Shown here: piece after piece, positions 3,076 to 58,994 of the stretch
How the letters are laid out: the number at the start of each line of letters is the position of its first letter
Position numbering within the stretch: position 1 is the stretch's first letter
Source of the DNA: Marsupella aquatica
Lineage: Eukaryota; Plantae; Marchantiophyta
DNA: 64,000 nucleotides
Direction of reading: 5' to 3'
Assembly (NCBI GenBank): GCA_973895155.1
Contig: OZ316892.1
Coordinates: 15,554,861-15,618,860 of the forward strand
Program-made: the position numbers and the translations under genes
Notes under the pieces: generated by a model
What the model was told of the DNA's origin: nothing
Seen by the model: the letters and a program-made list of their open reading frames with translations, nothing else
The model's database searches: none

Positions 3076-3086
3076 CATGCGCAGGC

Positions 3087-5232: not shown

Positions 5233-5764
5233 GGAGTAGTAGCATCAGTTTGGACACAAGTTTTTTTGTATAAATCAGATCATTGAAATAAATGTGATCT
5301 TTGAACTAATGTACCTTGTTATGGTTGGTGGCAGTTGGGCTTATTTTACTGTTGGCGGATTGTTGTTTCCTGCTGCCTGGGGGTGTCACTGTAAACGTAC
5401 TGGGTGGGCTCAAATCTCGGCGGTGAGATATCTGATACCGCTCTCACACCTATGCCTATGACTATACATGATTGGACTCTGATATGGTCATGGGTGTACA
5501 TGCAGAGGCGGTACATTTGAGGACAACTGTGGAGGTGGTGACACCCTCAAACATTGAGGAATTTTGTGTCATTCACTTGACAATAGGTACACTACTCGCA
5601 AACCTGTTTTTTTCTTTTGGGGTGGTTTAGGGTTTGTGAGAATTTATTACACGTTATGTTAACTCTTTTGGCACATACAGTCAGGGATATATGGAACACA
5701 AATACCACCATTAGGCATCCCTGTTCACTGCTGTCCATGACTGCAGAGCTTCCAGCCTGTTACA

Positions 5765-8700
5765 ATGCACCCTGGTCACCACCCTCCCCAAACCCAGCCC
5801 AGGGCACAGGCACTGCCTTTGCATCATCCCACAAGGATATCACGCCATGATAATAAGCTTTGGCAGCGTGAAAGGTTACGAACCAGACTTTCAGGAGCCA
5901 GTAGGATGAGATGTCCTTGTGCAATCTGCCAAGGATCCCGTACTAGGGGTCTGAATGAGGTTTGGCGGCATATCGCGGTTCATGGAAGAGATCCACGACA
6001 TCGAGTTTGGAATGATCCTGCAGAGGAAGATTCTTCTGACGAGGAGTGGAGGTTAGAATTTGATGCTGCCAATGCTGCAAGACGGGCAAGTGAGGTTCTG
6101 CCTGGTGCATTTGAAAATGTTGTAGCTGGTCTCTGTGGGTTGTCAGCTCTCCAACGGGATGGTGCTCAGGCAGCACCACGTGACGAAGGAATTCATGTGG
6201 AAGAGATGGTGAGAGACATCTTCCAAGACTTGGATGCATTTCATGATGGGCTGGACAACGAAGAGGATACGGCTGCAGATGCAAGTGTGCCCCCTGTCGA
6301 AGAGCCTCTTGATGAGTTTGATATAGGGCAGGAAACCCCTGGGCATGATGGGATGTTTGGCTCTCCCCTGCAAATACAGGAAGGCAGGAAGTCTTTGTAC
6401 CCCGGTAGCAAATGTTCTAAACTGGGATTTGTCATCATGTTCCTGAACATTTGCGGCAACCACAATGTCCCCAACGTTTTGGTTTCTGAGTTGTTGGCAT
6501 TCTTGCGAACAACTGTGCTACCAGATGGTAATATTTTGCCCAAGAACATGTACGAGGCAAAAAGATGCATATCTAATCTTGGATTGAACTATGATTTGAT
6601 CCATGCCTGTCCTGATGGGCATGTTCTTTTCAGAAAGGAGTATAAAGAATCGTTGACATGCCCTAAGTGTGGGAAGCACAGGTATCGGAACTCAGGAAAG
6701 TCTATGGTTCCCGCCAAGGTACTTCGTCATTTTCCACTCATTCCCAGACTTCAGCGGATGTTCAGAAGCCGTGCCATCTCGGAGATGATGACTTGGGCAA
6801 CTGACAAGAAAAGTGATGATGGGCTACAACGACATGCTGCAGATTCAAGGCAATGGAAACTCATAGATGAGATGTATCCCGAATTTGCTGCTGAGCCGAG
6901 GAATGTCAGACTTGGGCTGTCATTGGATGGGGTAAACCCATTTGGAGACAAGAACAACAAATTTTCGTGCTGGCCTGTAACTATTTTGAATTATAACCTT
7001 CCTCCTTGGATGACTACAAAGCGATTTTTTGTTCTGATGGTCCTACTGATACCAGGGCCAGACAGTGCTGTATCTGCCAACATAGATGTGTTTCTGGCTC
7101 CCCTAGTGGAGGAATTGAGAAAGCTTTGGGAGGAAGGAGTTCTCACATATGATGTCCTACAGAGGCTTGGGAGGTTAAACCCATTCATCCTTAGAGCCAT
7201 TGTCATTCTGACTATAGCTGACTACCCAGCCCATGGGATGATATTAGGCCAAACAACAAAAGGATATTGTGCTTGTACTATCTGTGGGCGCAATGTCACG
7301 AGTGAGTACTCCAGAGCCCTGCAGAAAGTGATATACATGGGCCATCGTCGTTTTCTGAAGGCAGATCACCCTTACAGAGAAAGACAGGCACTGATTGCAC
7401 ACTTTGGCAATGAGATTGAGCAACGTGGACCCCCGGCACGAGTGACCAAAGAGGAGATCAGGCAGTGGGGAGCACTGAGGGATGACTATATCAAACGAGG
7501 GGGCAGGGAAGATGGAGTGAGTGATCCAATAAAGCGATATGGTGTAAAAAGACTGAGCATATTGGACTTGGAGCTCAAGTACTGGAGGGTAAGCCTCTTG
7601 GAGTTGATGCTAATTGGGATACATGTTTTGGTTCAGAGCATGTGCATTCATTTCGAAGAGAGAGACTAAACTTGAGGCATTTCCTGACGCTTTTGCATTG
7701 CAACGATGCAGGAGTTTAAGCCAAGCAAACATAACATTGATGTTATGCACATTGAAAAGAATATTTGTGAGAGTCTACTCAGATTCTTGTGTGGAGAGAA
7801 AGACACTGGTTCAGTGAGATTGGATCTTGAACAGAGGGGAATGAAACCCCATCTTTGGTTGAGGCCACATGCCCACAGAGCTGATGTGCTCTTGAAGTAC
7901 CAAGCGCCCTATGTTCTGACAGACACAGAGTGGGAACTATTTGTGCAGAGGTTGAGTTCTTTGAAGGTTCCTTCAAACTATGGCAGTGCTTTCAAGAAGC
8001 ATATCATGACTAGAAAGCTTGGTAGTATGAAAAGCCATGACTACCATATGTTGATGCAACAGGTGTTGCCTTTATGCCTGAGGGGCCTGTTGCAGAAGCC
8101 TGTTCGTACTGTGATCATGCGACTCAGTGATGTGTTTCGTCGTATTTGTGTGAAGGTTTGGGATGAAACACACTTCCCACAACTGACAGAAGATGTCGCT
8201 CAGGTGCTGTGTGACCTGGAGATTTATTTTCCTCCCGCATTTTTTGATGTCATGACCCACCTACTTGTCCATGTTGTGGAAGAGCTACACCAATTTGGGC
8301 TTGTGAGTGCTCGTTGGTTGTACCCTTTGGAACGGTACATGAAGCTACTCAAAGGTCACGTGAGAACATATTACAAACCTGAAGCAAGCATGGCTAAAGG
8401 TTACATCAAGGATGAGACTCTAGGATTTCTGACCGAATACATAGCACAATATGAGCATGTGAAGACCAGGGTGTGGAATTCTGATGAGGAGGAAGGGGTG
8501 ATAGGTGAAGTACTGGAAGGGGCTGCAACCACAAAGAACCTGACCATATCTATGAGAGACTTGGCACATGACTTTGTATTGCACAACACTGTGGTGATGG
8601 AACCCTGGATACAGTGAGTGCATACATGTGCTATAATCCAGTTCATGAGCTTAAATGTTGTGTTCGTGTGGTTTTCTCCTTCAGCCTGTTCATGTTTACC

Positions 8701-9496
8701 CAAGCTAATGCTGTGTGGTTGTTCGTTCAGGGAGTATGAGTCATTGAAGGCGGCCCATCCCACTGCAGGAACAACTTTTCCAGGTTTCATGGAGTGGATC
8801 AGAGTGGCAATTAGAGAGCATCACGAGACCCACCCAGACATGGATGCAGATATTTACCTACTGTCTAATGCCCCTAGCCTGAAAGTGAAGACTTACAAAC
8901 GGATGAGAGCATATGGGAATCACTTTCGAGTGAAGGATGGTGACAGTGCCTACAGGGTGATGAATGACTGCGGGCTCATCACTGTATTTGAGCAACAGAG
9001 CCACAATCACGATAGGGCTTGGATGGAGATGGGATATGTGGGAGAATTAGTTGACATATGGGCTCTGGACTATGGGGCGGTGTCCAGTCCTATGATTCTT
9101 ATGAAAGGTTCATGGGTGCGGCAGGATTGGCTTGGTAACAGGGCTACCATGAAGAGAGACAACGACGGTTTCTTGCTGGCCAATTTCAGAGGGAAATTGC
9201 CCGAATGGTCTGAGCCATTTGTGTTTCCTAGTCAGGTGGAGCAAGCTTTCTTCCTGGATGTGGAAGACTCCCCAGGTTGGCGTGTAGTGTGTCATAAACA
9301 GGCCAGGCAACGTCGGATGGAAGGATCACACCTTGAGTTTCATTTACACTCTCATAGTGCCTTTGATCGTCGGCGTTCAGACCAAGTGCCTGTAGTTCAT
9401 GATAGCGGGGACTTCATTCCTGTGACAAGGGTAGATGCATTTGCTGAAGGAGGCGAATTCAGAGATGCAGATGCCAACAGTGTGCCTGTGCCATGA
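5765..9496 (+). CDS. CACTA TnpD-like transposase (Transposase_21/DUF4218/DUF4216 type); exons ~5765-7588, 7712-8613, 8731-9496
   Basis: Motifs CPCAIC...H, IHACPDGHVLF...CPKC, PRNVRLGLSLDGVNPF, SCWPV...YNLPP, ADYPA, DVMHIEKN, MKSHDYH, FPPAFFDVMTHL, WLYPLERYM, EPFVFPSQVEQAFF. GT-AG introns restore the frame. Confidence 0.92.
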
Positions 9497-9651
9497 GTAA
9501 TGTGAATTGTTTGCATGGACATTAGTGAGGGGAAGGATGTGTAATAAAGTAATTCTGAAGCAACACAGATGTATGGATGGATGCCTGGTGATTGTGGTTG
9601 CATTGTGTTATACGGGGTGATCATAGATAACATGTTTTTGTGGTCCAGTAG

Positions 9652-12600
9652 GATGGAACAGAGTGACACAGAGATGTGTGAGTATGAAAGGAAAGCTATG
9701 GAACAACGAGCATACGTGAAAGCCAAAATCGCAGAACTGGATCTGGAAAAGGATGTGGCTGAATTGTAAGGGAACGATTCTCAACTACACCCCTCCGCTG
9801 AGTTTGTGTGACATGAATAGTTCAATGTGGCACTGAAATTGTGACTGTATTCTCATATTGGAATGTCGCAGAGCCACAGCATTTTCAAAGAAACAAAAGG
9901 AGTACGCAAGAAGGTCGTACCTACAATGGCAGAATGTGGAGATGACATTGATGCTGCACAGGTGGGTGCAGACACTAGACAAGAAGATGCAGATGATGAG
10001 TATTTTCCAGAGGAAATGGATGAGGATGGGGGTTATGAAGATGAATACATTGCAGAGCAGCCCCAAAAGAAACAGGTAAGTAGTTTTCCCAACAAGGTTT
10101 TGAGTTAAAAACTCTTGTTTAGAGGTTTCATATGTTCAGTACTACACATATGTACCTTGCTTAGTTCCTGACATTGTAGTTGGTGATGTGATGCAGCGTC
10201 CTACCAGTTCTGTTTTGCCTTCGAAGCCTGTGCATGCACCATACCAGCAGGGGGGCTGACCTCTGATCAAGGTTGGCGAGGTGGTAGTAGTGGTAGATCC
10301 CAGGCTGGTGCCCAATACTATGGCAGGGGGCAAGCTCTAGGTTATGCCCATGGTAGAGGCAGAGCAGGTCCAAACCCACAATCTCGTGGGTATGGACGTC
10401 CACCTCAACCATGGGGATGTGAGTATATATCTATATGCCAGTTCTTTGTGAAGGCATGGCACTCCTGAATTTCAGACTGCATATCAATTTTTGACATTGT
10501 TTGGGATGTATTGGATTCAGACAACATGAAATTCTGTCCACCTGCCATTGCATGCAGATTCTGCCCAACCTGATTGGGCAAATGCTAGTAATGATCAGTT
10601 CCAATGTCCACAAGGACAGACATGGGTTGAACCAGGTTGGGAGGATGGTGGTGGGTCATGGAATGAACAAGGTTGGGAAGGTGGTGAAGGTAATTGGCAG
10701 GGATATCAAAATTCAGTACCTACAAACGCTGGAAGAGGGGCAGGTAATGTCTGATCTTGTCAGCAATGGAAGAACTCATTATATCTGGAGTCCATTCACG
10801 TGGGGGGGACTCTGCACATGTATAATGATAGAAAATGTATGTGTGCAGGTTGGACAGTTGAACCATCGACTCAAGTATTCACTAATGCCCCTATGCAGAT
10901 GCAGCACGGAAGGGGGACAGGTATGTTGGTGAATGTTCAGTTGTTTTCCTACAGTTTGTACTTAGTTTTCAGTACATATGTTTGCACACACATACCTAGA
11001 AAGTGACATCATCCGGCCCCTGTACTAGGCTGGACAGGTGGTCCAGGGTCGCAACAATTTCAGAGTGCAGTCCCTGCACAGGCATCTACAGGCAGAGCTA
11101 CAGGTATGTATGTTTGAAGAATTTTTCTTGAAGTGAAGCATTGAATGTTGCTGTCATCCATTCTGCTATATGTAGTTCTCAAGCATGAATGGCATTGTAT
11201 TTTCCCAGGTGGCTTCAGAACCCCAGGTAGGGTGAATGAAGGGGTGGCCAATACAACGCCCAGTACTACCGAGAGCAGTGCACGAGGGGAGGTGACAAAG
11301 AAAGGGAACGTAAAGTTGAATGAGAGACAATGGGTGGATGCTGAGTGTCCTCGCAAGAACCGATGGCATGCTGATTTGAAAGCTGAAGTATTGCGTTGGT
11401 TAGATGTGAGTGTTATTAATTTTAAAAAACAGCATCCAAAAGATTGGAAGACTGTATGTGAAAATGTTGCTGCCAAATGGAATTATGTGGGCAGTGATGA
11501 TGACGTGGACATAGGTTGCCTAGAGAGTACAGCAGGGAAAATCATCAAGCAAGAGAGGTGGAGAATGCATAAGGCTTGGAAGGAAGGTGGGGAGAAGCCA
11601 GATATGCCTCCACCAGCCAGTTGTGATGATAAAGTGTGGGCAAGGTTAGTAGCTTATTTTGTAACAGATGCTTCAAAAAAGAAGAGTTCACAGATGACCG
11701 AGGCCAGGTTGAGTGTTCAGAACCCTAATCTGACAGGAAGGACCGGCACTGCACCGACAGCTAAACGTTTGGTAAGAATGAATGGCCTAGCTATGTAATT
11801 TATGCTACACTATGTACTGTTTTTTAGTGTAAACCCATACATGTAAACTTTGTTTTTTAGTGTACGTTCCCTGAATATTGATCGATAACTTGTGTTTGCC
11901 ATGCATGTGCAGAAAGCCCAATTGGGGCAAAGCCCTTCAAAAGAAGAGTTGAGGGCTGAAATTGTGAACACCCGGGCTCAAGAGGCTGCATCTGAATCCT
12001 CCAAGCATGTAAGTTATATGAGTTCTGATTGGTAATTGAATGACCTGCGTTGAATTTCAGGTGTACACTGTATATAACATTGATTGTGCATATATTGCCC
12101 AACATTTCATATGGAGTGATTGAACCTATACCCCTGTGTCATGTAGGGAGGTGGATCTTCACTTACAGAGATAAGTGGTCGTTTGAAGGCTGTCGAAACA
12201 TGTCTTCCAGAGATCAATGAACGTTTGAATTCATTGACTGACTTGTTCCATGTGAACTTCAAGACATTAATGGAAGCTGTTGTGTCGGTGAGAGATAAAA
12301 TTGATTCCAATTCTGCAGGAGTTCCACCATCACCATTTGAGGTGGCAAAGTCGATGCACTCTTCTGGCATGCCAACGACATGTAGGCTTGAAGGTAAGGC
12401 CTTTACAACTGTGTGGGATATGATTATTAAATGTATAGTTTGAATTGACATTGTTTGTTGAATGTGTTATTTTCAGTAACATATATTGTGGTTGATGTGT
12501 CCATAGAGAATAAGACAGGTGCTACAGAGAAGAAGTATGAGAACCTGGCAAATACTCGCTGTAATTTAGAGGCAACAAAGTTGCAGTCTGTACAAGCAAC

Positions 12601-13303
12601 TTGTTTGACAGAGGGCAGTCAACCATGTTTGGATGAGGATGACATTGGCAAGGGAGTGGATGATATCAATGTTGGGGCAAATGAGGATATTAGCAAGCAT
12701 GACAATGATACCATTGAGCCAGATTCATGCTATGTAGATCTTGACTCCATTGCAGAGATAAATGATTTGCAGAATGTATCATTCTCAATGACAGGTGTGC
12801 CTCTTGTTGAGATAAATCCAACCAAAGAGTTAGTTGGTATGACACTCCCAGGTGATGAACCTGCTACTGTGACAGTCCTAACAGAGGAACCTATTGAGCC
12901 TAGCTTCACTACTGTGAAGAGAGGAAGCATGCGCACACGAAGCAAGTCTGCTGGTGGGAGCAGAGCCACGTCAAAGGTTTCATACAAACCTCCAAGAACG
13001 GTGCTGGCAGAAAGATCTAAGGTGGAAGTGGGGAAAGCACCTAATGGTGAGGGACAAAGTGGCTTGTTAGCTCTTGATGAGAGTGGAACACGAGTAGGAT
13101 TTGGCCGAGTGCAGGTTGGTTCCACAACGTTCCATGGCAAGAGGATTCCCCCAGGTTATTCAGTAGTGTTAGTCACATTACTAGTGAAACCTAAAGCTGT
13201 CCTTCCCATTCCAAACACAAATGATGATCCTCCTCAAAAGACACTTGGAGATGCTGCAGGTTCTTTGGTATTATGGCCAAGCAAGTTCATAGAGGATCCA
13301 TAA
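9652..13303 (+). CDS. CACTA TnpA-like multi-exon gene (exon structure only partly resolved)
   Basis: Exon 11209-11771 has VWARLVAYF...KKKSSQMTEAR...TGRTG. The terminal exon ends FHGKRIPPGYSVVLV...LPIPN...TLGDAAGSLVLWP, typical of En/Spm ORF2 C-termini. Many GT-AG junctions. Confidence 0.65.
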
Positions 13304-13799
13304 CAATGTCATGTCATTATTTGTTTGTAGTGTGAGTCATGTTATGTAGATTTTAGATGTCAAGAAGCAGTACAAGAATCATGTCCTCTTGGAGATTCAT
13401 AGTATCATGCATGTGCTTTCAGTTATCTCATCCTGCAGTCATCAATTATGAGTTCCTGTTTTGTCTGAATTACATTGATCACATTGTAAACTATTCCATT
13501 GGAATTCAAATGATCTTCATTTTTTAGCAAGATTGTGATTGTGTTTAATTCTTATGAATGTTTTATGTAGGATCTGCTTATATGATGCTTTGTTTCATGT
13601 GGATGTCATTCATGCTATGTTCATTTCTTGTATTGAATGTGTTATATTTCTAAAGTTAGAACATCAGGTTTCTATGTATTGTAATGTCGAGTGCTCTCTC
13701 TCCTTATGAATTGTCCCTCTGTGTTCATTAGTCATGGTTATAACTTGCATGTGAACCTTATTAGTTATAAACATGAGTATATAGAGTCCCAAATGGTTC

Positions 13800-14158
13800 T
13801 GTTGTGTGACGCGGGCCAGGGTCTCCATTGGTCTCTCCTGTGACACTAAATGGTCACACGCTAATCGTTGTTGAATGCGGGTAAGTCATGCATGTGACTT
13901 ACGATGTGACTCGCTGAAGTCATATTGCAGTCACGTCGAAACAAGGCTAGACTCCACAATAAAGTCACAGATCAGTCACAAATGGGTATCAAGCAAGTTG
14001 CAAAGCCCAATATCAATAGTGACTACCATTTTTTGGTCTCAACTTTTGCAACTCCAAGGGTCACAGCGTGGGTCAAGTCACGTTGAGTCACAATGAAGTC
14101 ACATGAGCCAAAATGAGTCACATATTGCGGTCTCAGTTCACCTCGGATTCTTCTAGTG
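13800..14158. repeat. CACTA subterminal repeat array and right TIR
   Basis: More than ten GTCAC(A)/TGTGAC motifs in both orientations, ending in TAGTG. The predicted 3-bp TSD is ATC (14159-14161). Confidence 0.85.
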
Positions 14159-14300
14159 ATCGCATACCACACACTTAGCTATCAACTGCTGGGCATGAGT
14201 GTGCATACCACGCCACCAATACTGTGTCTGCAGCAAGCTATAAGTGCGCTTCACACCAAAGTGACCCAACTCCTCGTGTGCATGTCACACCAAATGTACT
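14159..14300 (-). pseudogene. Integrase HHCC zinc-binding domain, truncated by the CACTA
   Basis: HAHEELGHFGVKRTYSLLQTQYWWRGMHTHAQQLIAKCVVCD followed directly by CACTAG on the - strand. Confidence 0.88.
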
Positions 14301-14482
14301 CGTTGTGATGGTTTTGGTACCACCAACATCCTACCATCATGCAGTACTCTCAAAAGATGGTTTCCCTCCCATCGAAACCTCTTGGCTCTCTGTAGAACCC
14401 TGTCACGTTCCTTGGCATCAACACTGCCAACAATAGAACCATTGCGCAGATATTCCAACACTCTCACATCATTGTGAATATT

Positions 14483-16119
14483 TTATTGTCCAGTAGTTAC
14501 CTCACTAACATCCACATCTGAAGACTCATCATCCACTCCATCCAATGAGGTAGAGTCCACAGATCCATTGTATGTTGGCACCCAACAAAGAAAGGCAGAT
14601 GCATGCCATCCTGGCACCATCTCCTTATCTGACTCATCATGCCATCTGGCTCCAGTCTCATCTTGCTGACTGGTACATGGATTGCGGCTTAATCCATCTG
14701 CATCCAAGTTCACTTTTCCAGGCCTATGCACCACCTGGAAATCATACTCCTGTAACAACAATGCCCATCGTGCAAGCTTCCCTGTAAGCTTGTCAGACTC
14801 CATTAACCACTTAAGAGGCTGATGATCAGTGATCAAGGTGAAGGGGTTACCAAACAAGTAGCAACGAAAGTGTGCAATAGCCCACACTGCTGCCAAACAC
14901 TCTCCCTCATAAGAGCTATACTTAGCCTCTGCTGAATTGTTTGATCTACTGGCATAAGCCACAACAAACTCATTCCCCTCATCATCCTTCTGAGTCAGCA
15001 CTGCTCCAAGTCCTACTCCACTCCAATCAGTGTGTAGCTGAAATGGTCTGCCTGAAATGGGTCTTCTCAAAATAGGGGATGATGCCAACCTTTGCTTCAA
15101 CTCCTGAAAGGCATGCTCCTGGTCATTACCCAAATCCATTCCTGATCCAACTTAGTGAGTATGGTCAAAGGTTTAGCAAGCTGGCTAAATCCTTTAACAT
15201 ACCTCTTGTAGTAGCTCGCCAATCCCAAGAATGCACGAACTCTACTCACATCAGTAGGACAAGGAATCTGTGTAATGGCCTCCACTTTAGTCTGCTGTAC
15301 ACCCAATCCCCCTAGGTATATAGTGTGGCCCAAATACTCAATCTGGTCTTGGAAGAACTTACACTTGCCAGGATGGAGCTTCAACCCATGTGCTCTCAAT
15401 CTCTCCAACACAATAAGCAAGTGCTGTTGATGTTCTTCCACAGTAGAAGAATAGACCAAAATATCATCAATATAACATCTGACAAAATCCAAACCTGCAA
15501 GGATTCGATCCATGACTCTTTGGAACTCAGCTGGTGCATTCTTCAACCCAAATGGTAAGAATAATCACTGATACAAATGATCTTTGCCATAAGAATCAAT
15601 CCCCCAGAATGCTGTCTTGGACCTGTCAGCATGCCTAATTGGAAGCTGATGGTACCCTGCCCTCAGATCCAATGAATTGAAAACCTTTGCATGCCCCACA
15701 GCATCAAAGATCTCCTCAGGTGTGGGCATGGCATATCGATCAGATTTTGTCTGGCGATTAATAGGTCTGTAATCACCATACATGCGCCTATCTGTGTAAT
15801 TGCCATGCACATCCTTCTTGGCTGGCATCACTGTGGCAGATGCATACTCCCCATATGAAATCTCCACCAATCCAGCCTCCAACAAATCTTGAGTTCTGCT
15901 TTGAATCAGAGCTCTCTCCATGTCACTATAACAGTATGGTCTACGGAAGATTGGCGCATCACTAGCCAATTCAATCTGAATACCAGGGCCCTTCAGTGTC
16001 CCCAAATCCTTCATGCTGAATGCAAAACAATTCCAATAACTCTTCAGGAATCGATGCATGCGACGTCTCTCCTCCCCTATTAACTTAGGGCCAAGTTGTG
16101 GTTCCCAAATCTCCACCAA
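14483..16119 (-). pseudogene. Gypsy reverse transcriptase and RNase H (frameshifts/stops)
   Basis: DYRPIN, LDLRAGYHQ, LPFGLKNAPAEFQR, YIDDILV, RAFLGLASYY, LHTDWSGVGLGAVLTQ, VAYASRS, TDHQPLKWL, DADGLSR. Confidence 0.93.
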
Positions 16120-16359
16120 ATCCCTAATATCTCTTTGTAGGGTAGAAGAGATAGCCGATGGTTGCTATTTAGCAGTAGATTTGAGCAGTCCCTTCCTGCT
16201 CAACAATCTGTCCAGCCTTGGCCAATCCTGCCATAGGTCCATGGATTGTCTGCTCGCCCCCAACTGTGGTCAATACTATCTCAGTGGACCGCAAGCTCAC
16301 CAAGGGACAATCAGTAATTCCAGCAGAGCGCATCCGCAACTGTTCAGCTACTCCCAAGC

Positions 16360-17292
16360 TGATAATCCAAGTCAAATAATTCAGGTCCATTGCTTGACCA
16401 AGAACCTGGCGCCGCAAACCCTCTAACACAGAGGCAACTGCAGTGGTGCCAGTCAAAAATCCCATAGCACGCTCTCTCTCATCAGCAGTAGGCTCCACTA
16501 ACTGCTGGAGAGCTGTGTCCCACACAAGTCCAGGGCCACCTCCTCTGAATGCATATGAAGTAGAGTGGCTGACAAGAGTTGGTAATGCACAATGTGGGCG
16601 CCCAACTGCATTGACCACTGCCAATGGAGGTCTATCAGGTTGGGTCACACCCTGTGCACGACGCCCTGGATCCAAAATATCATCCATCACTAAGGCTGGT
16701 GAGCATGGAATGCTGTCAAATGCGCGCTTCAGCACCTCACATGGGATCAAATTGGTCCACCACAAGCGTGGACGATGTGCACGAGAACCCATCCAATAAC
16801 ACAGTAGGTCCAATCCAAGAACTCACCTGGTGAACACTGGCAACAATCCGACTACGATCATCACCTATTAATGGCACATTCTCCAAAATATATGCTGGAG
16901 ACTATGTCTGATGTAGCTGGAGATGACGCAGCACCCGTAACATCTCCTAAAACAGTGTAGAGCGTGGATCATGAAGTCCATGCCCAACGCCAGCTCTAGA
17001 TTGGCCCTGACATGGCCAACCAGCAATCACCAAATCAATTGGGCCAACACGATGCAGATGATCCGCCCCCAGCAATGAAATATCAGTAGGTAGTGCATGC
17101 TGATAACCACGAACAACATCCACTGGTAGCAATTGTGGATATCTATCCACCAACATAGCCACATGCCGCAATGAGACCCTCCGTGCTGTCTCATCTGACT
17201 CCACATACAAATAACGACGCACAGGAATTCTTGTCTGAAGAACAACAGCCAATCCAGTGCTAATCCCACCAAAAAGATCCAACAAACAACAA
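16360..17292 (-). pseudogene. C5-cytosine DNA methyltransferase domain (DNMT3-like) within Gypsy pol
   Basis: Motif I LLDLFGGISTG (17292-17254), II YVE, IV IAGWPCQG (PCQ 17015-17007), DPRSTLF, VI YILENV (16883-16875), VIII AHRPRLWWTN (~16780-16751), IX ERERAMGF (16480-16457), X LGQAMD (16402-16385). Stops at 16947-49 and 16902-04; frameshift near 16790. Confidence 0.9.
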
Positions 17293-17699
17293 CCCTTCGG
17301 TGGATACTGCCAAGCAATAGGAGTGGTATCCAATGGTGAAAGAGTCACAGGTCCATCTGCAAGAGGCTGCTCTGCTCCTAACTGTGGTGTAAAAGCATGA
17401 CGCCATGCATCATGTACCAATCGTGCTGTTGCCTGTGGCAAGGCCTGTGCAATGCCCCACACTAGTGGCACAACACTGCCAATAGATAATCCTCGTATGA
17501 TGTGCTCCTCATGAGACTCCTCCAATGGTGGAACATCGGCTGCATGCACATTACCCTCAATCAAATCATCAGGTCCAGCAATTACACCACTGAATGCTGC
17601 CAAAGACAATGGTGTGGATTTAGGGCCTCCCACAGGTCCACTAAATCTCACTGGCAATTTTCTCAATCGAGCATCTCCTAACTGCCAATCAGGTCTATA

Positions 17700-18050
17700 T
17701 GACACTGATTCCTCCCAAAAATCAAGAATAAATCCCATGGGGTAGAGCACTGTACATCCCACCAACACATCATATGACTCTGCCTTAGTCAGAATAGCTC
17801 GCGCCTCTATCTGTGAGCTATCTGTGGTATGACCTTCCTGAATCCTCAAATCAAGTGGTCTCCTGGTGATATGCTGTGTAGGTGTAGGTCCCCCCAATGA
17901 AGTCTGAATGGGAAAGGGACAATCCTCCAAATCCTCTGGATGCAATCCCAATCCACGTATGGCAGACTTCCCCAACATCAAGGGTTGAGCACCAGTATCC
18001 AATAACACTCTCTCTGGCTGGTATACTGCTCCAGAAGGCCCAACTAATTG
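17700..18050 (-). pseudogene. Retroviral-type aspartic protease
   Basis: ERVLLDTGAQPLMLG (Asp codon 17999-17997) and YDVLVG, in the same ORF (16947-18158) as the DNMT N-terminal half. Confidence 0.85.
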
Positions 18051-18159
18051 GAAGATACCACTCCGATTATCCAATGACACAACACTAGGTTTAAACCTAG
18101 TCCTCTCAAATGCAGGGCATGTGGTAAATCCACCAACCTCACTGCTGCTGCATGCCATG

Positions 18160-20146
18160 TCTCACTAGTAGCAGTAGGTGGTATGGTCTTCACTGCTTCA
18201 ATACTACAAGCTGCTTCTGCATGGGAAGCAACAACTGGAGTGTCCTCACAGAGTGTAGCTGCCAATCTGAACACTTCTACAGGACCAACTCCCAAGTTCA
18301 GCATGTCTGTCGCTGAAAATAATGGGGTGCGTACTATGGCAGTAGCCACCCCCAGCAGGGTACCTGTCATCCCTACTGTATCACTATCGGATTCTGCCAA
18401 CTTATCCACGCCAGGGTTTGTCCGAACCAGGTTCATAGAGGCAGTCTGAACTGTCTCTGACAATGTAAAAGACTGAGGAAGCTTTGTCTGCCGACATGCA
18501 TCGCCCCTCTGTGGATCTAGCTCCACTACTGCTCCTCGGGGCTCAAGAGCTTTGGCTGCCCCACATGTCAAAGCTGCTGATGCATCAATATGTGCAGTGC
18601 CACACATGAATCCCATGGTGGCAAGATCTCCATCAGCTCCATAAGATGTGGAAGGACCATGAGATGTGGAAGATCCATAGGATGTAGATGCCCCATCACC
18701 AGAAGTAGGTCTCACCTGGGAACTAGCCATGGCAGCTAGCTGTTGCTCCAATTGAGCAATCTTAGCATCCTTTGGATCTATGGTTACAGCAGGGGCAGCG
18801 TCATCTCCTTGTCTCCCTGCATGTGGCATGCCATGACCACGTCCACCGCCTCTACCTCCTCCTCCTCTTCCCTGATCATGTGTACGGGATCCTCCTCTCC
18901 GTAACTCATGATGGAGTGAGAAACACCTATCCTTGGTGTGTCCAGGAGCTCCACAGTGATCACACTGTCGTTGATCAGGCGCTGATGCTCCCCCTGATCC
19001 TCTATGATCTGGGCAATATCTCTGTGCATGATCCCCACCACAGGTCCAACATCCAGACTATTGTCCAGCATAAGAGGGCACAGGTCTCTGGCTGGTAGAC
19101 TCTCGTGCAGTAGGCTTCTCCCTCTAGCTCTTCCGTGCAGTAGGCTGTGGTGTGGATGTGGATGCAACCTTTGGTGCTTCCTTGGAAAATCCGGAAGTCA
19201 CCACCTTCTCATTCACCATATTGAGCTCAATGCGCTTAGAAAGTGTAAAAACAACTGCTAATGTGGGATCTGCATCCCTAAGTAGAGTGACATCTCTCAC
19301 TCTACGTCGCAATTCTCTGTCCAGAATTGCATACCAAAACTGGACTGCCTGAGCCTCTGTCACTCCCTTGGTGACAGTGATCAATCTACGCATACGAGTG
19401 TATGCCTCACGTAGACTCTCTCCAGTCTTGCGCTGGAACTCCTGAAGACCCTTCAACTTATCAGTTCTTACACCCTGATAGTTCTGCTTTAGTACCTCAA
19501 AGAATTCCACCATAGGGTTAAATGCTGGTGCAACTCCAGTTCCTGTCACAATCACACCGGCAGGAGTAGCGGTGGATGCTGCTAGAGTGCTGGTGGTGGA
19601 TGGTGTGCCACTCTGGCTAGTGCTGCTAGAAGAGGCAACAGCTGTGGCAATGGGTTGGGCAGCCGCACTAGTGCCATAGGTGATGGACACGTAATTAGGT
19701 GACCAATGCTGCCTCCATGCCTCAATCTCAACCAAATGAGTCTTCCAAAACTCATGGTAGTCATCCATGGGTGGCCCCTCCAAATGCTGAAATAATCTCT
19801 TCCATGCCATGAAAGGGGTAAACAATGTGGCGTTACGCAATATCTGCATATCGCACCACGTATCAAACTCCTGGATGAAGTCATCCAGATCAATCGTGCT
19901 AACTGCACCAGAGTATCGTCGTGGGCCCTTTGTAGCCCCGTACATCTCGTCCATATCCCACAACAAAGGTGCAACCACCTGATGATGAAGAGAACTGGTC
20001 ATTGAGTCCTCATCAGAATCACTGTCTGAAGCTGCACTGCTGACTGCTACCAATGCCGCTGGTCGAAACTGCGCCCCACTCCGAGTGAAACCGGTCCGTC
20101 GTCCATCGGGTAACCCAGCAGCACCAGAAGAATCTGTGGTGACCAA
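18160..20146 (-). pseudogene. Gypsy gag with two zinc knuckles
   Basis: Retrotransposon-gag-like FQRKTGESLREAYTRMRRL; knuckles CWTCGGDHAQRYC and CDHCGAPGHTKDRC; in-frame TAG stops. Confidence 0.8.
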
Positions 20147-20694
20147 CCCTAACCTAATCTATGTGCTAACCCTAAGGGCAATCTGTCCCTATCAGCACCA
20201 CAAGCACTCACCATGGTATGTTGGACATCACTCCAACATCACCAGGAGAGAAATACACAGCACACTAGAATGTCCGGTTGCAAACCCGAATCACTCCTAT
20301 GGAATCAAGCGCCCATACCGAACCAACATGGCGCATAAACAAGAAACAAGTGTGGAGAGGATCCAATCAACAAGAATAGTCAAACACTAACTCTCCACAC
20401 CAAGAGTGATCACACATTGATCAAACAAATATTCATAATATTCAATGAAAGGCCTTCATAATAGGCTTCATGATGTCCCAATGTTATAGATGAGAAACCA
20501 TGCGGAATTGGTTCAATCTGTGTATTTAGATGAACTCAAAGCTATCAAAAACCTCTAAAGAGCCTCTGATTTGGCCCGAAACAAAGCTCTAAGCAAACCG
20601 GAAAGTGTATAAAGCCCCTTGGCGCTTGAATCTAAACAACAAGTTGTCAAAGCTTGCGTGTACACAAGGTGGGATAAGAATTTGCCAGTTAAGC

Positions 20695-21200
20695 GCTCGC
20701 GGCTGGGAATAGCCCCGGGATGGGTGACCTCCTCGCGCTCAACCTCGTGCCTCCCCTCGCGCTCACGGCCCGGAATAGCCCCGGGATGGGTGACCTCGAC
20801 CTCGCGCCTGCCTGCGCTCGCGATGGGTGACTTCGCGCTCGCGGTTGGGAGCACTTTCGGGATGGGTGACCTCGTGCGCCTCACACCTGACCCCAAAAAC
20901 GACTACTTCCTTGATGAAAAGTTCTCGAAAACTATCGATTTCCTTCATGAAAAACGTAGCCCTTCCACAGAATTGGCAGCAGCTTGATTCAACACCTTTG
21001 ACCCTCGTTTCTTTCAAAGAAATGATGATACCGCCGCACAGGGCATTGGCAGCTCTGTTTCTTCAGGAAAAGAGCCATCGCTTCACCTGCGCCTTGCCGA
21101 CATCGTCCAACAATAGCCGGCAATTAGATCTGAAGCCCCACGGTAGCCGATAATCAGATCTGAAGCCTCACAGTAGCCGGCAATCGGATCTGAAGCCTCA
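20695..21200. repeat. Short tandem repeats in the Gypsy A leader
   Basis: ggaatagccccgggatgggtgacctc x2 plus gatgggtgac variants; ~30-bp cggtagccg...gatctgaagcc x3 at 21110-21200. Confidence 0.75.
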
Positions 21201-21586
21201 CGGATCGACTTCCACTGTCCAACATCTACTCAACATTCGTTTTCCTCCACGAATCATCAATCGACCTCCAACTCAAAACCTGTCACCAATCACAGATCTG
21301 TACATTGATCGGGAAGCAGGCCGATCGGACAACAATGATACAGGTCAAGATACCAACGATCTGTTCGATAACAACACACGATCCGAGCTACCATGAACCA
21401 TCGACAACTCAATCAATCGAACTTCTATTTGCACAGTCCGTACAATAGATTTCGAATGTGATCTTTCAATGTAATCTCCATACAATCGGCACAACGATCC
21501 CGGTCAACAATACCCCATCGATCCCGCACCGATCCGATCACACACGTATGTCAAGCCAACGCACCTTGCACTACTCAAGGAATCCA

Positions 21587-21796
21587 TGTTACACAAGCGG
21601 AGCTCACAGCCACCATAGCCACTCAAGCTCCTCTCTCTCCAAGGCTCAACATTGAAAGATGACCTTTCAATGCCTCACAAGTGAGAAGTACCCTCTCACA
21701 CAAACCTGACAGAACCTTATCGGCTCCAATAGCACTCATACCAAACGTACATACTCTAATAGCATGATATACTACACTACTCAGAATGGTGTGACA
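21587..21796 (-). repeat. Putative 5' LTR of Gypsy A (210 bp, TGTCACACC...GTGTAACA), followed by PBS-like TGGATTCCTTGAG (21586-21574)
   Basis: TG...CA ends followed by TGG. Colinear similarity to 25194-25460 (tcatcttt..atgttgagcctt; ttccttgag...gcaaggtgcgtt). Confidence 0.7.
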
Positions 21797-22117
21797 AAGA
21801 CAGCAAAGAGCACCACAAGTGGTCGGGAAACTCACACAATAAAGAAGCTGGAGCCGAAGGTTCTTAACTTTGAAAATGTGTCTGCTGAACGTTTGAACAA
21901 AGGTCCTTTTGAAGGGATTGTTGGGGAGTACTTGGTTTTATTTGGAGTTGACTCAAGCAAGAAGGCTAGAGAGCCACCTCAGATTCCACTATGTCGTTTG
22001 ATGACAATGGAGGCAGTTTGGACTCTCCAACAAAGCTCCATCCTCAAGATGAAGAAGGACTTTGTGAAGAATGGGTATGTGGACAAGTTTTTGGAATTCC
22101 ACATATCAGAGACCAAT

Positions 22118-22488
22118 AGTGGTGGACCTTGCCACCTAGCGCCCTCACCAATCCCAACACTCACACCTAAAGTGGTAGACCTTACCACCCAGCGCCCTCA
22201 CCAATCCCAACACTCACACCTAAAGTGGTAGACCTTACCACCCAGCGCCCTCACCAATCCCAACACTCACACCTAAAGTGGTAGACCTTACCACCCAGCG
22301 CCCTCACCAATCCCAGCACTCACACCTAAAGTGGTAGACCTTACCACCCAGCGCCCTCACCAATCCCAACACTCACACCTAAAGTGGTAGACCTTACCAC
22401 CCAGCGCCCTCACCAATCCCATCACTCACACCTAAAGTGGTAGACCTTACCACCCAGCACCCTCACCAATCCCAGCACTCATGCCTAC
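22118..22488 (+). repeat. 53-bp tandem repeat x7 of the element terminus
   Basis: gtggtagaccttaccacccagcgccctcaccaatcccaacactcacacctaaa at 22119, 22172, 22225, 22278, 22331, 22384 and 22437. Confidence 0.95.
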
Positions 22489-23916
22489 GTGCCCTTGGTG
22501 CCCAAACGCCTCCACGGAATACCTTGAGCAAGCAACCTAGTGCCCCTTTGCACCGCCAACGGCCCCTCCCATACGAAGTCGCACTTGCTCTCTAACACGA
22601 CCGCTACTCAACGGTCCTCCCTATCTGCACAAGTAACCAAGCACCTCGATAAGTAACTCTTCAGGATCTAGAACTCGCCAAGTCTAGCATCCTAACTCAA
22701 GCTCAACAAACGTTGGTAAATAGGTCAGCGATAGGTCCTCCCGATGCCATAAGCCGAAACCAGAACCCACGCCCACTGTTTGTCTAGAACAACTCCTTCC
22801 TTGGGCGCGGCCCGGGTTCCCCCTTGTACCTATCCATCACCAACTGACCGCCCTAACCTTAGGACATGCTCATGGCCCAAGTAGCGTAGCTTGTCCTAAA
22901 GCTTGTCCTAAAGCTTGTCCCAACACGCCGGGACCAGAACGGCCCCGACTCTAGCAGCCGCTCCCGGTTTGCCCCACCGATGGTCTAGGGGCCAAGCACC
23001 CTTGGAACTCATCCTCCACACCTACTCGGCCTTGCCTCCCCAACACAAGTTTCCTTGGGAGACTGAACGCGGCTTGGCTGCTGTTCGGCAGGATTTGGCA
23101 AGCGGGCAAGCTAACACCCGCAAACCACGAGAAGCCATGGCACCCCCGGACCCATCTGAGCTAAGGAGGGCGTAGCCCTCCTCAAGAGCTTTCCAACGCA
23201 CCCAAGAAGTCCTCTAACGGACTTCCCGTTGGGAAGATATCACCATTTCTGTTTGGCGGTTTCCCTTAGTGTCGCGACCGCTGCGGCTCACGACTTCGGC
23301 TCGGCTTTAGCCCCTAGGGAGACACCACTCCCCTCATATATGTTTCTGGAGACCTGCCACCCCCGGACCAACTTTGGTCCCTAAACATTTGGCCCCCAAC
23401 CCGGATCCCATCGCGCATAATGGGCGCGCCACCAACTGGCAACGCCCATAACTTTCTTGATAGGCATCCGCAAACGGAGTGCCTTAGCCCATTGTGACCG
23501 GGCCAACCCAGTGCTCATGCCTAGGCCCTCAGGTCTGATTTCCGCTCGAGGCCCCCAACCAGCCCAACCCGGATCGGGCCACAACTTGCATCCCAAGCGT
23601 CCATTGTCAACGGCGTCAACTCCATTGGCCTTGGGCCCAAGAGGAGCTCACTCCCAAGCCCTCAGAACTCAAAGTCCATCCGAAGGTCCGGATGGCCATC
23701 CTTGAGCCTGGCCCATTTCCCCTTGACCCGACCAGCCATAGGCTAGTCCAAGTCCTTAGTGTGTGCCCCCAGCTTGGCTCCTTGCCTCGCTAGTGCCACG
23801 TCTCATTGCCCACAAGTCTCCCCATGCTAAGTCCTCCCCGGATGGCCTATCCAGGCCTGGACCATAAGGGAGCTCGGAGTCGGAGTCAGTGATGCCGGTA
23901 GTCAAGTTTCGCGAAT
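22118..23916 (+). mobile_element. Solo-LTR-like element, copy 1 (AGT...AAT ends, TSD CCAAT)
   Basis: CCAAT at 22113-22117 and 23917-23921. Homologous over its full length to the inverted copy at 51661-53153. Confidence 0.85.
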
Positions 23917-24336
23917 CCAATGCACATAACGCCACCCACTCCATGTCTGAATTTTCCGCAAATTGGGACCCTCTATGGGAACAAGCTAATGCAAAATTTG
24001 AGATGGAGTGTGATGAGTACAAGGAGTTTTGCGTTTTGAAGGGTAAGATGTTTTGGGTGTTTGATGGAAATCATCGCCTCAATGCATAGAGACAAGTGGC
24101 TGAAGAGTATCCTGTCAAGCAGAAGTACCACCGTTGCGTGAAATCCTCTCTTCTACAGCCTGGAAAACAAGGATTCAAGAAGATTGAGCAGGCAATGCAC
24201 GGCTTGAATGCGTAAGTTTCCGCCCCCTTGGTTTTTGGTTGTTCTTGCATTGGTTGTTCATTTGCACCTAGACAGGCAATGCTATCTCGGAGAGATAGAT
24301 AAATACATACATAGAATGTTTGGCCCTAAAATGCTC

Positions 24337-24795
24337 TCTCAGAGAGCCTCTCCAAGATAGAAAGAACCTTCCCTTCTCAAAGACCCTCTCCGAGATATCC
24401 ATGCCTTCTTGAAGAGCGATGCCTTCTCGGAGAGCCTCTCCAAGATAGAAAGAACCTTCCCTTCTCGAAGACCCTCTCAGAGATATCCATGCCTTCTTGA
24501 AGAGTGATGCCTTCTTGAAGAGCCTCTCCAAGATAGAAAGAACCTTCCCTTCTCGAAGACCCTCTCAGAGATATCCATGCCTTCTTGAAGAGCGATGCCT
24601 TCTTGGAGAGCCTCTCCAAGATAGAAAGAACCTTCCCTTCTTGGAGAGCCTCTCCAAGATATCAATTCCTTCTTGAAGAGCGATGCCTTCTTGGAGAGCC
24701 TCTCCAAGATAGAAAGAACCTTCCCTTCTCGGAGAGCCTCTCCGAGATATCAATGCCTTCTTGAAGAGCGATGCCTTCTCAAAGAGCCTCTCCAA
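24337..24795. repeat. 88-bp minisatellite (~5 copies) in the intron of the ParB-like gene
   Basis: agagcctctccaagatagaaagaacc at 24343, 24431, 24519, 24607 and 24695. Confidence 0.95.
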
Positions 24796-26169
24796 AGAGA
24801 CATGTAATTGCTCGTACATAGCCTTTGACGCTTCTTTTACGTAGGATAAGCGCAAACGTTGTGCAGACATCTTGGTTGACCGATGCAGATAGGGTGAAGA
24901 AGCTGTTGATGACACCTTTGGAGGAGTATCAGACATTGCTTCATCCGGATGGTTATGCTAGATTCTTAGCAGCAACCATAGAGGAGCTTGGCATAAAAGT
25001 TAGCAACGATAGAACTAAGTGTTAAGGTAGTCAATTTCCGTGACTCTTTGCTACACATTCAACAACAACATATTAATATTATTGTTCAAAGCCAAGATAA
25101 CCTACTCCCCTCAAATATGCAAGTACAAGCATCACGTTGAGCCTCTTTTCGAATTTTTTTCTAGCCCCCCCTAAAGGATGAGGATGAGTGGTATGTCACA
25201 CCAGTATGAGTGGTGGTATAGGATATTGGACTATGTAGGTTTGAGGCTTTCATATGTATGTTATCTAAGTGTTTTAGGGTTAATGTATGTTTGTGAGGGA
25301 TAGTTATATATCTCTTTGTGTTGGCTCAAAGGTCTCATCTTTTGATGTTGAGCCTTTTGAGCACAAGCTCTAGCAGTTATGGTATGGCTGTCTAGGTTGT
25401 GTGTATGTAACGTGGGTTCCTTGAGGGGCAAGGTGCGTTTGGCTTCACGTATGTGTGTGATCGCATTGGACAAGATTGTGTGTTTAATTTGGCATCAATT
25501 GTTGTTTGATTGCTCTTGAAGATTACATCAAAAGATCGTCTTCAAACTCTCTTGTGCGAACAATGTAGACAAAGGTTTGATTTCATTTTGGTTTTGTTGT
25601 TGATGATTCATGGTAGCTCGGATCAGGTGTTATTATTGATAGGATTCATTGTTGGTATCTCAATCTCTTGCAAGTTGGTGTGGCGCTTGCGTGGAAGTGA
25701 AGCTTCAAGTTGTTGTTGCTAAGTTGCAATTTTGGAGTTGCGGTCTTCGACGATATGCGTTGCTACATTGTGGAGGATTGATTGTGTGATCGACAAGCGC
25801 ATGTTGCTATTGACAATTTGTGAGAGAGAAACAATGGCATATAATCCTATTTTGTGAAGGGAAAGTAGTTGGATATGCGACTCTTTATGGTTTTGATTTA
25901 GGCGGTTTGATTGGGAGCCCGACAATTGATTGTGTTTATAGTTTTTGTAGGATGCAATTCTGATTTTCATCAAGTTCTTTGTTGATGGATAGTTTGTTTC
26001 TATGAAGGAAACAACATTGAATGTTGGTGAATTTTGTCGTCAACGCGTGACGGGATAAGGCATCGTGGAGAGGCAAGGGCGACTGTGATTTAGGGCATAG
26101 AGGAAACAACAAAGAGTGAATAGTGATTTTGTTTTGTTAAACGTGGCGTGTTTAGCGCATAACTTGAGT

Positions 26170-26545: not shown

Positions 26546-29500
26546 TTTTTATATCTAGAACTTTTTTGGTCCTTTTCAAGTAAAACCCGCAAAAACCCAC
26601 GGGAAGGCGGCCAAAGCAGCCAAAACAACAACCAAAAGGCCAAGCAACCAGGGCCGAGGCCCCATGGTGCAGAGCCGGCAAGGAGCACAAACCACATGAG
26701 TGCTCGTAGGAGTGACAAAACCAAGGCAAAACTGTCTAACATCTGAAGGCCTTGTAAGTCACCAGACCACAAACCGAACCACAGTGGAAGGCCACTACAG
26801 TCTAAAGAGTTGTTGTCAAGAAAGTGAACAGGCAGAATAGAAAAGCGCCAGCTGAATGAACTAGTCTAGAAAGTCAGAGCCTACTTCTAAGCCTAATAGA
26901 ACCACTGCCTTCCCCTAGTAAGTGCCCAGTGAGAAAAACCACTTCACCATGTCGCGAAGGCATCCTTCCTTCCTAGCCACCGCCTTCTCTCACTGAACAA
27001 AGCATCCTTGGCTTGGAGGAGCCTCGCGTGCTTGCGGCAGGGCCATAAGTTTCACACAGCCCATGAATGTTGTCCGCCATTTCAGAGAGGACTAGATTAA
27101 AATTGAAGGAGCGTCTTATTGGGGGATTGAAAAATTGTTCATTTCTAGCATTCCACAAAGTCCACAGGACCTGATAGACCATGAAAGCCACGATTGTGTG
27201 CGTAAAGCGGGGTCCTTTGAAAGAGCCAAGCAGTAGCATAATATCCGTAGGAGGCCAGAGAATGATTCCAGGAAAAGACTGAGACACCAAACTCCAGCAT
27301 TTACGTGCAAATTGACATTTAAAGAAGAGGTGAGGGATGGATTCCAGTTCCGTAGAGCAAATTTGGCACATACCATTGCTCTTCCCGATTCTAAGAGCCC
27401 GCGTGCCTGTGAAAAGTCCTTGTGCCAGTATCCTCCATACAAAGGTGCGGGATTTCAGAGGTAAATCCGAAGTCCATAGTGACAGCCATATATTATTCCA
27501 TTCCGGCTCCGTGAGAATAGTATGCCAGATCCCGTTTAGCCGTCTGTAGTTTGATCCTTTGGGTCGGAGCAACTGGTACATGCGTGCATTAGGTAGTGTA
27601 AAGCGCCTCAGTGCTTCGGGTTTGTCCGACCACCGCCATTGCCCTGCAAAAGCGTGCCCAGACCGCATTTGATCTGTGAAACAGGTGATTTTGCTTAGAA
27701 AGCCCAAGCTCAATTCTTTAGTCCTGTCATCCATGCCTCGCACTTTGGCTAATTTGCTGGAATAAAAAGCAAAGTTGCTTGGAGAAGGCGCTTTCAGATC
27801 TGCTATATCCCGGATCCCGACCCTGCCATAAGTCCTGTTGATGGCACATATTGTGTCTTCCCCAAGATCTTGCAGGCCCTCCATGCATCGGATCACACAC
27901 CTTTTTGCCACTGCAGTGTCCCTAGGAGAAAAAATGAGATGTGTACGCAACGTCTCCCAGGAGTGCCAAAGACTTCTAGTGTAGCTCATTCCACTGAAAG
28001 TCCGAGGGTAACATAGTAAGAGTCGATCCGTGAAGGAATAATTGTTCCGCCTGATTGTTTTGGCATTATGCCATTTGGCCAGACAAAGGTTTGCTGCAAA
28101 CAACCGGGCCCATTCAGAAGATGGCTGATCTAGAGCCTAGTTAAACCATTGGCAGAGTAAGGCATCGGAGTGAGCCTTGAAGTCTTTCAGACCAATACCT
28201 CCATCAATCTTGGGCCGGGAGAGTGTTCTCCAGGCAACGAGGGGCACCTTTCTTCCGCCGTCTGCATTATATCCCCAGAGGAAGTCCCTGCAGAGTGCTA
28301 CTAACTTGGTGACCAAGGTGTTCGAAGAATGCAGAAACATCATGTGGTAAATGGGAATTGCCTGTAAGACATGTTTGACAAGGATGGTGCGTCCAGTGAA
28401 CGAAAGGAACCTGTTGGCCCAAGTTGAGAGCCGAGAACCAATTTTGTCCAGGCAGAAGGTGTGAAGCTGTGTTGAATGTAGACCCCATCCCATCGGAGCA
28501 CCAAGATATCGTTGAATCTCACCCCGCTTACTGATCTTGCAGCCCGTGCTGATGAGCCACTCTGGTATGCTCTCCATAGCCAAAGGGATAATGGTAGACT
28601 TATGGAAATTCAGCTTGGCTCCAGAAGCCAGTTCATAGCACGCAAGCGCCCCTTTAGCGCCATGAAAGTCAGCTTCACAAGCCGGTATGAACATGCCCAT
28701 GTCGTCTGCAAAAAGCCTGTAGCTGATCATGAGAAAATCAGAAATCTTAACCCCCTTAAATCGCCCGATCGAGATTTCAGAATCCAAGTGGTCCATCAGT
28801 GGCTGGGTCGCTAGAACAAAAAGAAGTGGAGATAAAGGACAGCCTTGACGAACTCCTCTCCGCATCTGAATGTCCTTGGAGAAGAGGCCGTTAATATGCA
28901 CCTGAGAGCTGGCACTGCTAATAAGGGAACGGACCAGGCTGATAAAGTGCGAGCCGAGCCCCAGAAGGTGAAGAGTCTCCTAGATATAAGAATGGGAGAC
29001 CCGGTCGAAGGCTTTCTCGAAATCCAGTTGTAAGAAAAGCGATTCCTGTTTCTGCTTAGTTACCCAATCCACCGTCAGCCAGGCTATGGAGATATTTTCT
29101 AGTATGTGTCAGCCTGGTATAAATCCCGTTTGCTGCGAACTGATAAGCTTCCTTAAGAGAGGTTTGAGACGGAGAGCTAAAATCTTTGCAATCAGTTTGT
29201 ATACAGTATTGAGCATTGTCAGCGGCCTCCAATCTTTCAATCTGCGTTTATCTGGCTTCTTTGGGATGAGCTTTATGATGCCTTCTTTAATGTGCGAGGC
29301 CAGAGTTCCTGTCCTCCAAAAGTCCAGAATCATGTGCATCAAATCCTCCTTGATAAAATCCCAGCATGAGCGAAAGACCTCCGCCGTCAGCCCGTCTAGG
29401 CCAGGGGCTTTATCTAAAGGAAGCAACCATAATGTGGCACGAACTTCATCTATAGTTGGAGGCTTTTCCAGCCTGAGAATCTCAGCCGTTGACAGAGCCT

Positions 29501-39260: not shown

Positions 39261-39299
39261 TTGTAAGCTTGGAGGGATCAGGGGGAGATCGACATCATA

Positions 39300-55532: not shown

Positions 55533-58994
<3,462 letters not shown>

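Follow-up and report, generated by a model that had tools for sequence, protein, structure and literature searches.

A Gypsy-Type Retrotransposon Lineage of Bryophytes with a DNMT3-Type Methyltransferase at the End of Its Gag-Protease Frame, before a Predicted Leaky Stop

The element copy found in the window (the whole 64,000-nucleotide stretch of Marsupella aquatica contig OZ316892.1 that was analysed) is a dead, 3′-truncated member of a multicopy family of Ty3/Gypsy-type retrotransposons, and it carries a C5-cytosine methyltransferase (DNMT) domain that is a conserved component of the element, under purifying selection. In the lineage of the window copy this domain is the last one of the gag-protease frame and not simply a part of pol. 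That the element is of the Gypsy-DNMT3 kind and that the stop codon behind its DNMT is a leaky one, as predicted, we regard, both together, as probable.

The Window Copy and Its Surroundings

The element runs on the minus strand from 21796 to 14159. Its likely 5′ end is the TGTCAC at 21790–21796, where repeat A begins and where similarity to a second leader (from 25194, on the plus strand) sets in; relatives have TGTCATG. A 5′ leader of approximately 1.6 kb follows (20160–21789), supported by sister contigs in four of four public runs, whose coverage is thin at 20473–21206, and by alignment of part of it to the second leader. The gag region (18122–19954), with two Cys/His knuckle-like motifs and a spacer, aligns by tblastn with residues 1–596 of the Marchantia protein P0004 at 50% identity; a Pfam search of the gag frames of this copy gave no match. 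The aspartic protease (17691–18047; DTGA) was identified by tblastn, with a PF13650 match below the cut-off (E = 0.0026), and it is indeed fused in frame to the DNMT, as the preliminary description had stated: protease and the first part of the DNMT share a single open frame, 16947–18161. The DNMT domain occupies 16331–17300 and is followed by the C-terminal tail of the gag-protease-DNMT frame (16168–16330), by the stop junction (16159–16167), by reverse transcriptase (RT; 15226–16158; YIDD; PF00078 and tblastn), by RNase H (14657–15130; PF17917, E = 5e-38), and by the integrase zinc finger (14159–14323; PF17921, E = 5e-14), Pfam giving the order protease, RT, RNase H, integrase. The integrase catalytic core, the PHD finger, and the 3′ repeats are absent because the end of a CACTA element (CACTAG, 14158) abuts at this point; a tblastn search of the rest of the window gave no integrase core, and no LTR pair belonging to the element was found within it.

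The copy had been called dead on account of two stops and one frameshift in the DNMT. These were confirmed (stops at 16949 and 16904, frameshift near 16790), and outside the DNMT the element has a further five stops and three frameshifts: in gag, stops at 19126 and 19060 and a frameshift near 18120; downstream, stops at 15567 (in RT), 14485, and 14287, with frameshifts near 16180 (in the tail) and 15130 (at the start of RNase H). Contigs from the four public runs (42,424 records in the richest) cover 30 of 30 bins of the interval 13500–24500 and are mostly 90–99% alike to the window copy, and the element family is therefore multicopy; the DNMT domain is evenly covered in every run. Among the differences listed, which comprise 40 of 1385 substitutions and 12 of 73 indels, sister contigs depart from the window copy at the stops near 16948 and 19126 and by indels near 18121, 16180, and 15128; the tail indel near 16180 sets the window copy apart from them in all four runs.

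Within the leader, on the plus strand at 20660–20880, lie four tandem units with a common 11-base core (three exact, one mismatched). We take these units to resemble plant 5S rRNA promoter boxes, as in Cassandra elements; they gave no Rfam match and were absent from 80 of 80 metagenome loci (the best 80 of 295). Partial sister copies stand on the plus strand at 25194–25780 (leader), at 31406–32198 (a piece of gag beyond two LINE insertions), and at 43445–45085; the last of these passes from gag straight to RT, lacking protease and DNMT, and has two gag stops in common with the main copy. Cytosine decay between window copies amounts to 0.34 for CG, 0.24 for CHG, and 0.10 for CHH, and no element-specific mark was found in it; host methylation or silencing would give this pattern, and such decay is no test of self-methylation.

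A separate 1.8-kb insertion of very high copy number, with a 53-bp tandem array, lies at 22115–23919, the joint across it being present in four of four runs. It has an inverted twin, 91% identical, at 51694–53153, and it interrupts a reading frame (approximately 21710–24200) that is possibly ParB-like and whose tested part had no Pfam match. The window also holds an 88-bp tandem array (24243–24883), LINE-like elements with endonuclease, RT, and zf-RVT (26561–30771, 37359–42703, and 46498–47741), and, just before the CACTA element, PHD-like and BRCT frames (3060–5232). The CACTA element itself (5590–14158; Transposase_21, DUF4218, Transposase_24) cuts the integrase with its right end; the CACTA motif at 5590 matches neither the end at 14158 nor its flank. 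A host exon for aspartate aminotransferase (56536–56892; 70 residues, paralogues unsorted) matches, at 56680–56889, a Calypogeia fissa protein with 87% identity and the other seven hits with 62–72%, which agrees with a leafy liverwort as host and with the land-plant genome that had been surmised.

The Methyltransferase Domain and Its Relatives

The minus-strand translation of 17300–16331 contains, intronless and in canonical order, LFGG, IAGWPCQ, DPRSTLF, ENV, RPRLWWTN, ERERAMGF, and LGQAMD, so that all the catalytic motifs listed in the preliminary description were recovered; motifs I (FxG), IV (PC), VI (ENV), VIII (RxR), IX, and X are present and unpermuted. When the repaired frame was searched with X at the two stops, its N-terminal half matched PF00145 at 41.4 bits (E = 1.6e-10) against a cut-off of 22. 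The C-terminal half by itself had no Pfam match and, used as a query, matched 64 proteins, the majority of which have PF00145. The description of the enzyme as DNMT3-like agrees with two further comparisons: a profile of 21 family rows run against PDB sequences ranked DNMT3A first (E = 2.8e-23; 3e-23 to 4e-17 for DNMT3A, 3B, and 3C), ahead of DRM (5e-12) and then DNMT2 and M.HhaI (about 1e-7), and the structure predicted for the domain at locus L033, where it is intact (pLDDT 74, pTM 0.79, residues 203–259 poor), had DNMT3A as its best Foldseek match (E = 1.7e-14, TM 0.63). Judged by profile and modelled fold, the methyltransferase of the element has its nearest affinity with DNMT3, ahead of DRM, DNMT2, and bacterial enzymes.

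Between the window copy and 47 moss-type loci, the dN/dS of the DNMT is 0.18 (47 pairs, dS 1.57); the corresponding values are 0.12 for RT, 0.16 for integrase, 0.17 for gag, and 0.30 for the linker, with a near-saturated dS of 1.4–2.2 in these comparisons. It is 0.13 between L033 and L034 (one pair, dS 0.25) and 0.13–0.24 across lineages, where a dS of 1.4–2.8 is near saturation and limits the between-lineage ratios. Inside families of dead copies the values are 0.57 and 0.40, the latter in the GWECQ subfamily described below. The catalytic motifs PC, ENV, and RxR are retained in most relatives, and the DNMT holds an identical position from Klebsormidium-like through moss-type elements. The selection on this domain bears out the earlier view that it is a conserved part of the element and no passenger.

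Named matches to the C-terminal half, among the 64 proteins, come from Calypogeia, Marchantia polymorpha (nine), Sphagnum (two), and Klebsormidium, and a family profile search adds Closterium. The kinship with the Klebsormidium element that had been suggested is supported by the Klebsormidium protein P0062, a relative at 41% identity, and by the DNMT tree. In that tree (46 rows, host DNMT3 left out) the window copy falls in a 14-row clade (100/99) with every named bryophyte row, the Klebsormidium and Closterium rows lying outside; a tree of RT and RNase H (16 rows, family members only) places the window copy, Marchantia, and moss-type sequences together. No named match from a fern, lycophyte, hornwort, or seed plant occurs among the matches listed (64 and 120, most of them nameless), and 57 pattern matches in viral contigs included no relative.

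Several Marchantia gene models annotated as "hypothetical protein" (P0004, P0005, P0007, P0008, P0011–P0013, and P0029) are gag-protease-DNMT products of the element family, and such models could be mistaken for host methyltransferases in counts. A sister subfamily of 29 loci (L045, L047, L049–L055, L057–L059, L061, and others) has GWECQ in motif IV, and ENT, replacing PCQ and ENV; its split repeats, ends, and PHD finger are as in other relatives.

The Stop Codon between DNMT and RT

The preliminary description placed the DNMT between protease and RT, which stands, and directly upstream of RT, which does not: a tail of approximately 55 codons and then a stop, conserved and in frame, lie between it and the RT frame. 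The phrase "integral pol domain" is not borne out in that form either, since the DNMT ends the gag-protease frame and the stop precedes RT, RNase H, and integrase. At the junction in the window, TAG (16167–16165) is followed by CAA CCA, a CAR-YYA context and a predicted readthrough site, and the RT frame starts right behind it, in frame with the stop. The closest proteins, P0001 and P0171, terminate at a lysine that matches this junction, and the named Calypogeia, Marchantia, and Sphagnum proteins terminate 124–126 residues past the late DNMT motif. In 88 of 94 proteins with that motif, many of them fragments, the RT motif is absent downstream.

Forty-seven of the 80 metagenome loci used (the best 80 of 295) are of the moss type, in which the frame ends exactly as in the Sphagnum jensenii protein P0022. 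With a pattern that fixed the flanking codons and left the junction codon free, 40 of the 47 were readable, several of them representing one insertion recovered from more than one assembly (e.g., L048/L056), and the junction codon was TAG in 28, TAA in 11, TAC in 1, and CAG or CAA in none, which makes a stop in 39 of 40; at other codon positions in six domains a stop occurs in at most 39% of moss-type copies. L033 is intact, with a gag-protease-DNMT frame of 1369 aa, the junction TAG CAG TTA as its sole stop, and an RT-RNase H-integrase-PHD frame of 1047 aa, and L034 has the same junction. The moss-type loci read CAA CCC after the stop, which differs from CAR-YYA in the sixth base; two codons downstream of the stop stands an ATG. 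In L033, CAR-YYN stands behind 27 of 2416 codons and CAR-YYA behind 8; because the motif is this rare and synonymous sites are near-saturated, the retention of CAR-YY in three lineages is not a matter of chance. RNA structure 3′ of the stop gave no consistent signal in five copies (z −0.4 to −2.4).

According to the accessible text of the reports concerned, CAR-YYA by itself directs readthrough in plant viruses (PMC2194720), at approximately 10% in TMV (PMC2754532). Since the stop in the window stands in this context, the predicted output of DNMT equals that of capsid, with RT and integrase at a few percent. In TMV, and in SIRE1, Tca2, and MuLV, whose proteins are likewise stop-separated, an in-frame UAG with CAR-YY(A) sets the ratio of upstream to downstream protein (PMC2194720, PMC2754532, as far as their accessible parts go), and the window element is like them in this arrangement; it is unlike them in that the stop comes after protease and DNMT, that the moss-type context ends in C, and that readthrough is here predicted only. 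The arrangement is not general in the family. In the GWECQ subfamily the readthrough motif occurs in none of 22 loci with RT in view, and the passage from DNMT to RT is open in 11 of 18 same-frame loci, so that DNMT, RT, and RNase H have the same open frame there and not in the window lineage; DNMT and RT are also fused in P0064 and P0052. Because these loci and proteins lack the separating stop, Gag-level DNMT is evidently dispensable in some lineages.

Ends, a Proposed Mechanism, and Implications

In seven full-length relatives, repeat A stands before gag and the series B-A-B after the PHD finger, that is, as split direct repeats instead of two identical full terminal LTRs. The outer ends are TGTCATG and CACGACA (TG...CA type), a purine tract lies before the first B repeat, and the inner B-A junction reads CA-NN-TG, a pattern that 16 of 81 sequences matched, two of these poorly. 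At 7 distinct sites there is a perfect 4-bp target duplication in four (for two sites the outer of two candidate 3′ ends was chosen), a mismatched one in one, and none in another, and one further site is unreadable; the window copy contributes only its 5′ TGTCAC end at 21796, its 3′ end being lost. The integrase of L033 has the D,D(35)E arrangement, with rve followed by PHD, and a tyrosine recombinase found no match in either L033 frame; an identity as DIRS or Ngaro was rejected on these grounds. Troyka elements have a Gypsy-like domain order and were rejected as well, being described in the accessible text (PMC12440569) as confined to animals, with CG...CG ends, 3-bp duplications, and ordinary LTRs.

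We propose the following scheme. It is quite likely that most ribosomes would stop after the DNMT, yielding Gag-protease-DNMT, and that a few percent would read on to produce RT-RNase H-integrase-PHD. A DNMT would then enter the assembling particle with each capsid subunit, and so be present there at capsid level; we are inclined to think that the protease releases it inside the particle, and once free it would work on cDNA either there or at the integration step. Whether the DNMT methylates the cDNA before integration could be argued about equally well in either direction; if it does, new copies would therefore arrive marked as host-like heterochromatin. The case is similarly balanced for an integrase that acts on ends rebuilt from the internal CA-NN-TG repeat junction; it would join TG...CA ends with a 4-bp stagger, and the PHD finger would read the chromatin of the target site. 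Only tentatively do we put forward the entire picture, which as a whole leans to the doubtful side: a streptophyte-wide lineage, abundant in liverworts and peat mosses, in which a virus-type leaky stop loads DNMT3 in the number of the capsid, the cDNA is methylated before integration, the ends come from an internal att-att junction and not from two LTRs, and a PHD finger directs targeting.

The stop may be real and RT, RNase H, and integrase nevertheless be expressed through splicing, through a second promoter, or through reinitiation at an ATG close by, which would leave the DNMT on the Gag side. The ATG behind the stop in moss-type loci fits this reading, as do the gene models P0005 and P0036, which skip the stop region, and the finding, in the accessible text of PMC2194720, that in Tca2 the stop context alone is insufficient for readthrough. 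The gene models are machine predictions, however, and the second frame of L033 has its first methionine at residue 117, past the conserved motif IFRRPY (residue 76), while the window copy has it at residue 36; moreover, stop and RT are in frame in three lineages that have kept CAR-YY despite near-saturated synonymous sites. We consider such routes improbable, and readthrough the better account. It seems rather unlikely, too, that an active DNMT is meant for another target, be it host chromatin or copies already integrated, with a damping effect on the family or on its rivals, or that it serves the particle as a DNA-binding component. Output at Gag level would presumably far surpass the need of one cDNA, a benefit to the host is among the options listed in the 2018 paper (PMC5890265, accessible text), and in the GWECQ subfamily selection persists, at the within-family dN/dS of 0.40, with the PC motif altered; on the other side, most relatives retain the catalytic motifs, and fusion to Gag behind a protease suggests action inside the particle.

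There is very little to recommend the idea that the DNMT is a neutral captured fragment or chance insertion and the junction stop ordinary decay. The window copy is dead, decay of CAG or CAA to stops does reach 39% of copies at one site, and the two gag stops common to both window copies point the same way, but the position of the DNMT is constant across relatives, its dN/dS between lineages is low, its coverage by sister contigs is even, and the junction stop is found in nearly every readable moss-type locus and in an otherwise intact copy. As a reading of the DNMT domain, neutral cargo is refuted by dN/dS and by the DNMT tree.

A Gypsy-borne DNMT3 as such has already been published. KnitGypsy-Dnmt3 of Klebsormidium nitens (de Mendoza et al. 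2018, PMC5890265, in its accessible text) has DIRS-like repeats and a DNMT sharing a frame with RT, and it resembles the window element in its intronless, unpermuted Dnmt3 within a Gypsy-type polyprotein, and in purifying selection, and full-length relatives of the window element share its split repeats of the form A ... B A B; the window element differs in belonging to a land plant and in a DNMT that stands last in the gag-protease frame, before the conserved stop. The accessible text of that paper contains no mention that we could find of att-like ends, 4-bp duplications, a CA-NN-TG junction, or a PHD finger, nor of Marchantia, and its supplements, so far as accessible, none of Marchantia, Sphagnum, PHD, a stop codon, or readthrough. 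SymbioDIRS-Dnmt3 of Symbiodinium, for which de novo CG methylation was demonstrated (PMC5890265), is likewise a retroelement with a Dnmt3 and split repeats; it is of the DIRS class, with integration by tyrosine recombinase (PMC12440569), whereas relatives of the window element have a DDE integrase. The EpiLTR and DAM-LTR elements (bioRxiv 10.64898/2026.05.21.726589) also are LTR elements combining DNA methyltransferases with chromatin readers, but the enzymes are DAM and a DNMT4-related one, they occupy other positions, the readers are chromodomains, and the hosts are algae and protists; in the accessible part of that preprint, Gypsy-DNMT3 is regarded as having been captured separately. Work from the de Mendoza group, a 2025 paper (PMC12344493) and a 2026 preprint, refers in its accessible text to Gypsy-DNMT3 in "streptophytes" and does not name land plants there. 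We found no published report of Gypsy-DNMT3 in land plants or bryophytes, or of the junction stop, in the accessible literature; subscription journals, figures, or supplements could list bryophyte copies. New here are a liverwort host, relatives in a model plant, a DNMT on the Gag side before a stop that is predicted to be leaky, and, in relatives, split repeats bearing integrase-type ends.

The proposal of self-methylating cDNA was made in 2018 and stayed open for the Gypsy kind because that kind was known from one alga. Close relatives occur in Marchantia polymorpha, where genetics and methylation mutants are available, and the idea thus becomes testable. Capsid-level DNMT in one lineage and pol-level DNMT in a sister lineage are a predicted natural contrast in dosage. 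The split repeats, together with integrase-type ends, point to an undescribed route of priming and integration, and such repeats may cause ordinary LTR finders to miss elements of this type. If the entire picture is true, land-plant genomes would have in this lineage a mobile source of de novo methylation.
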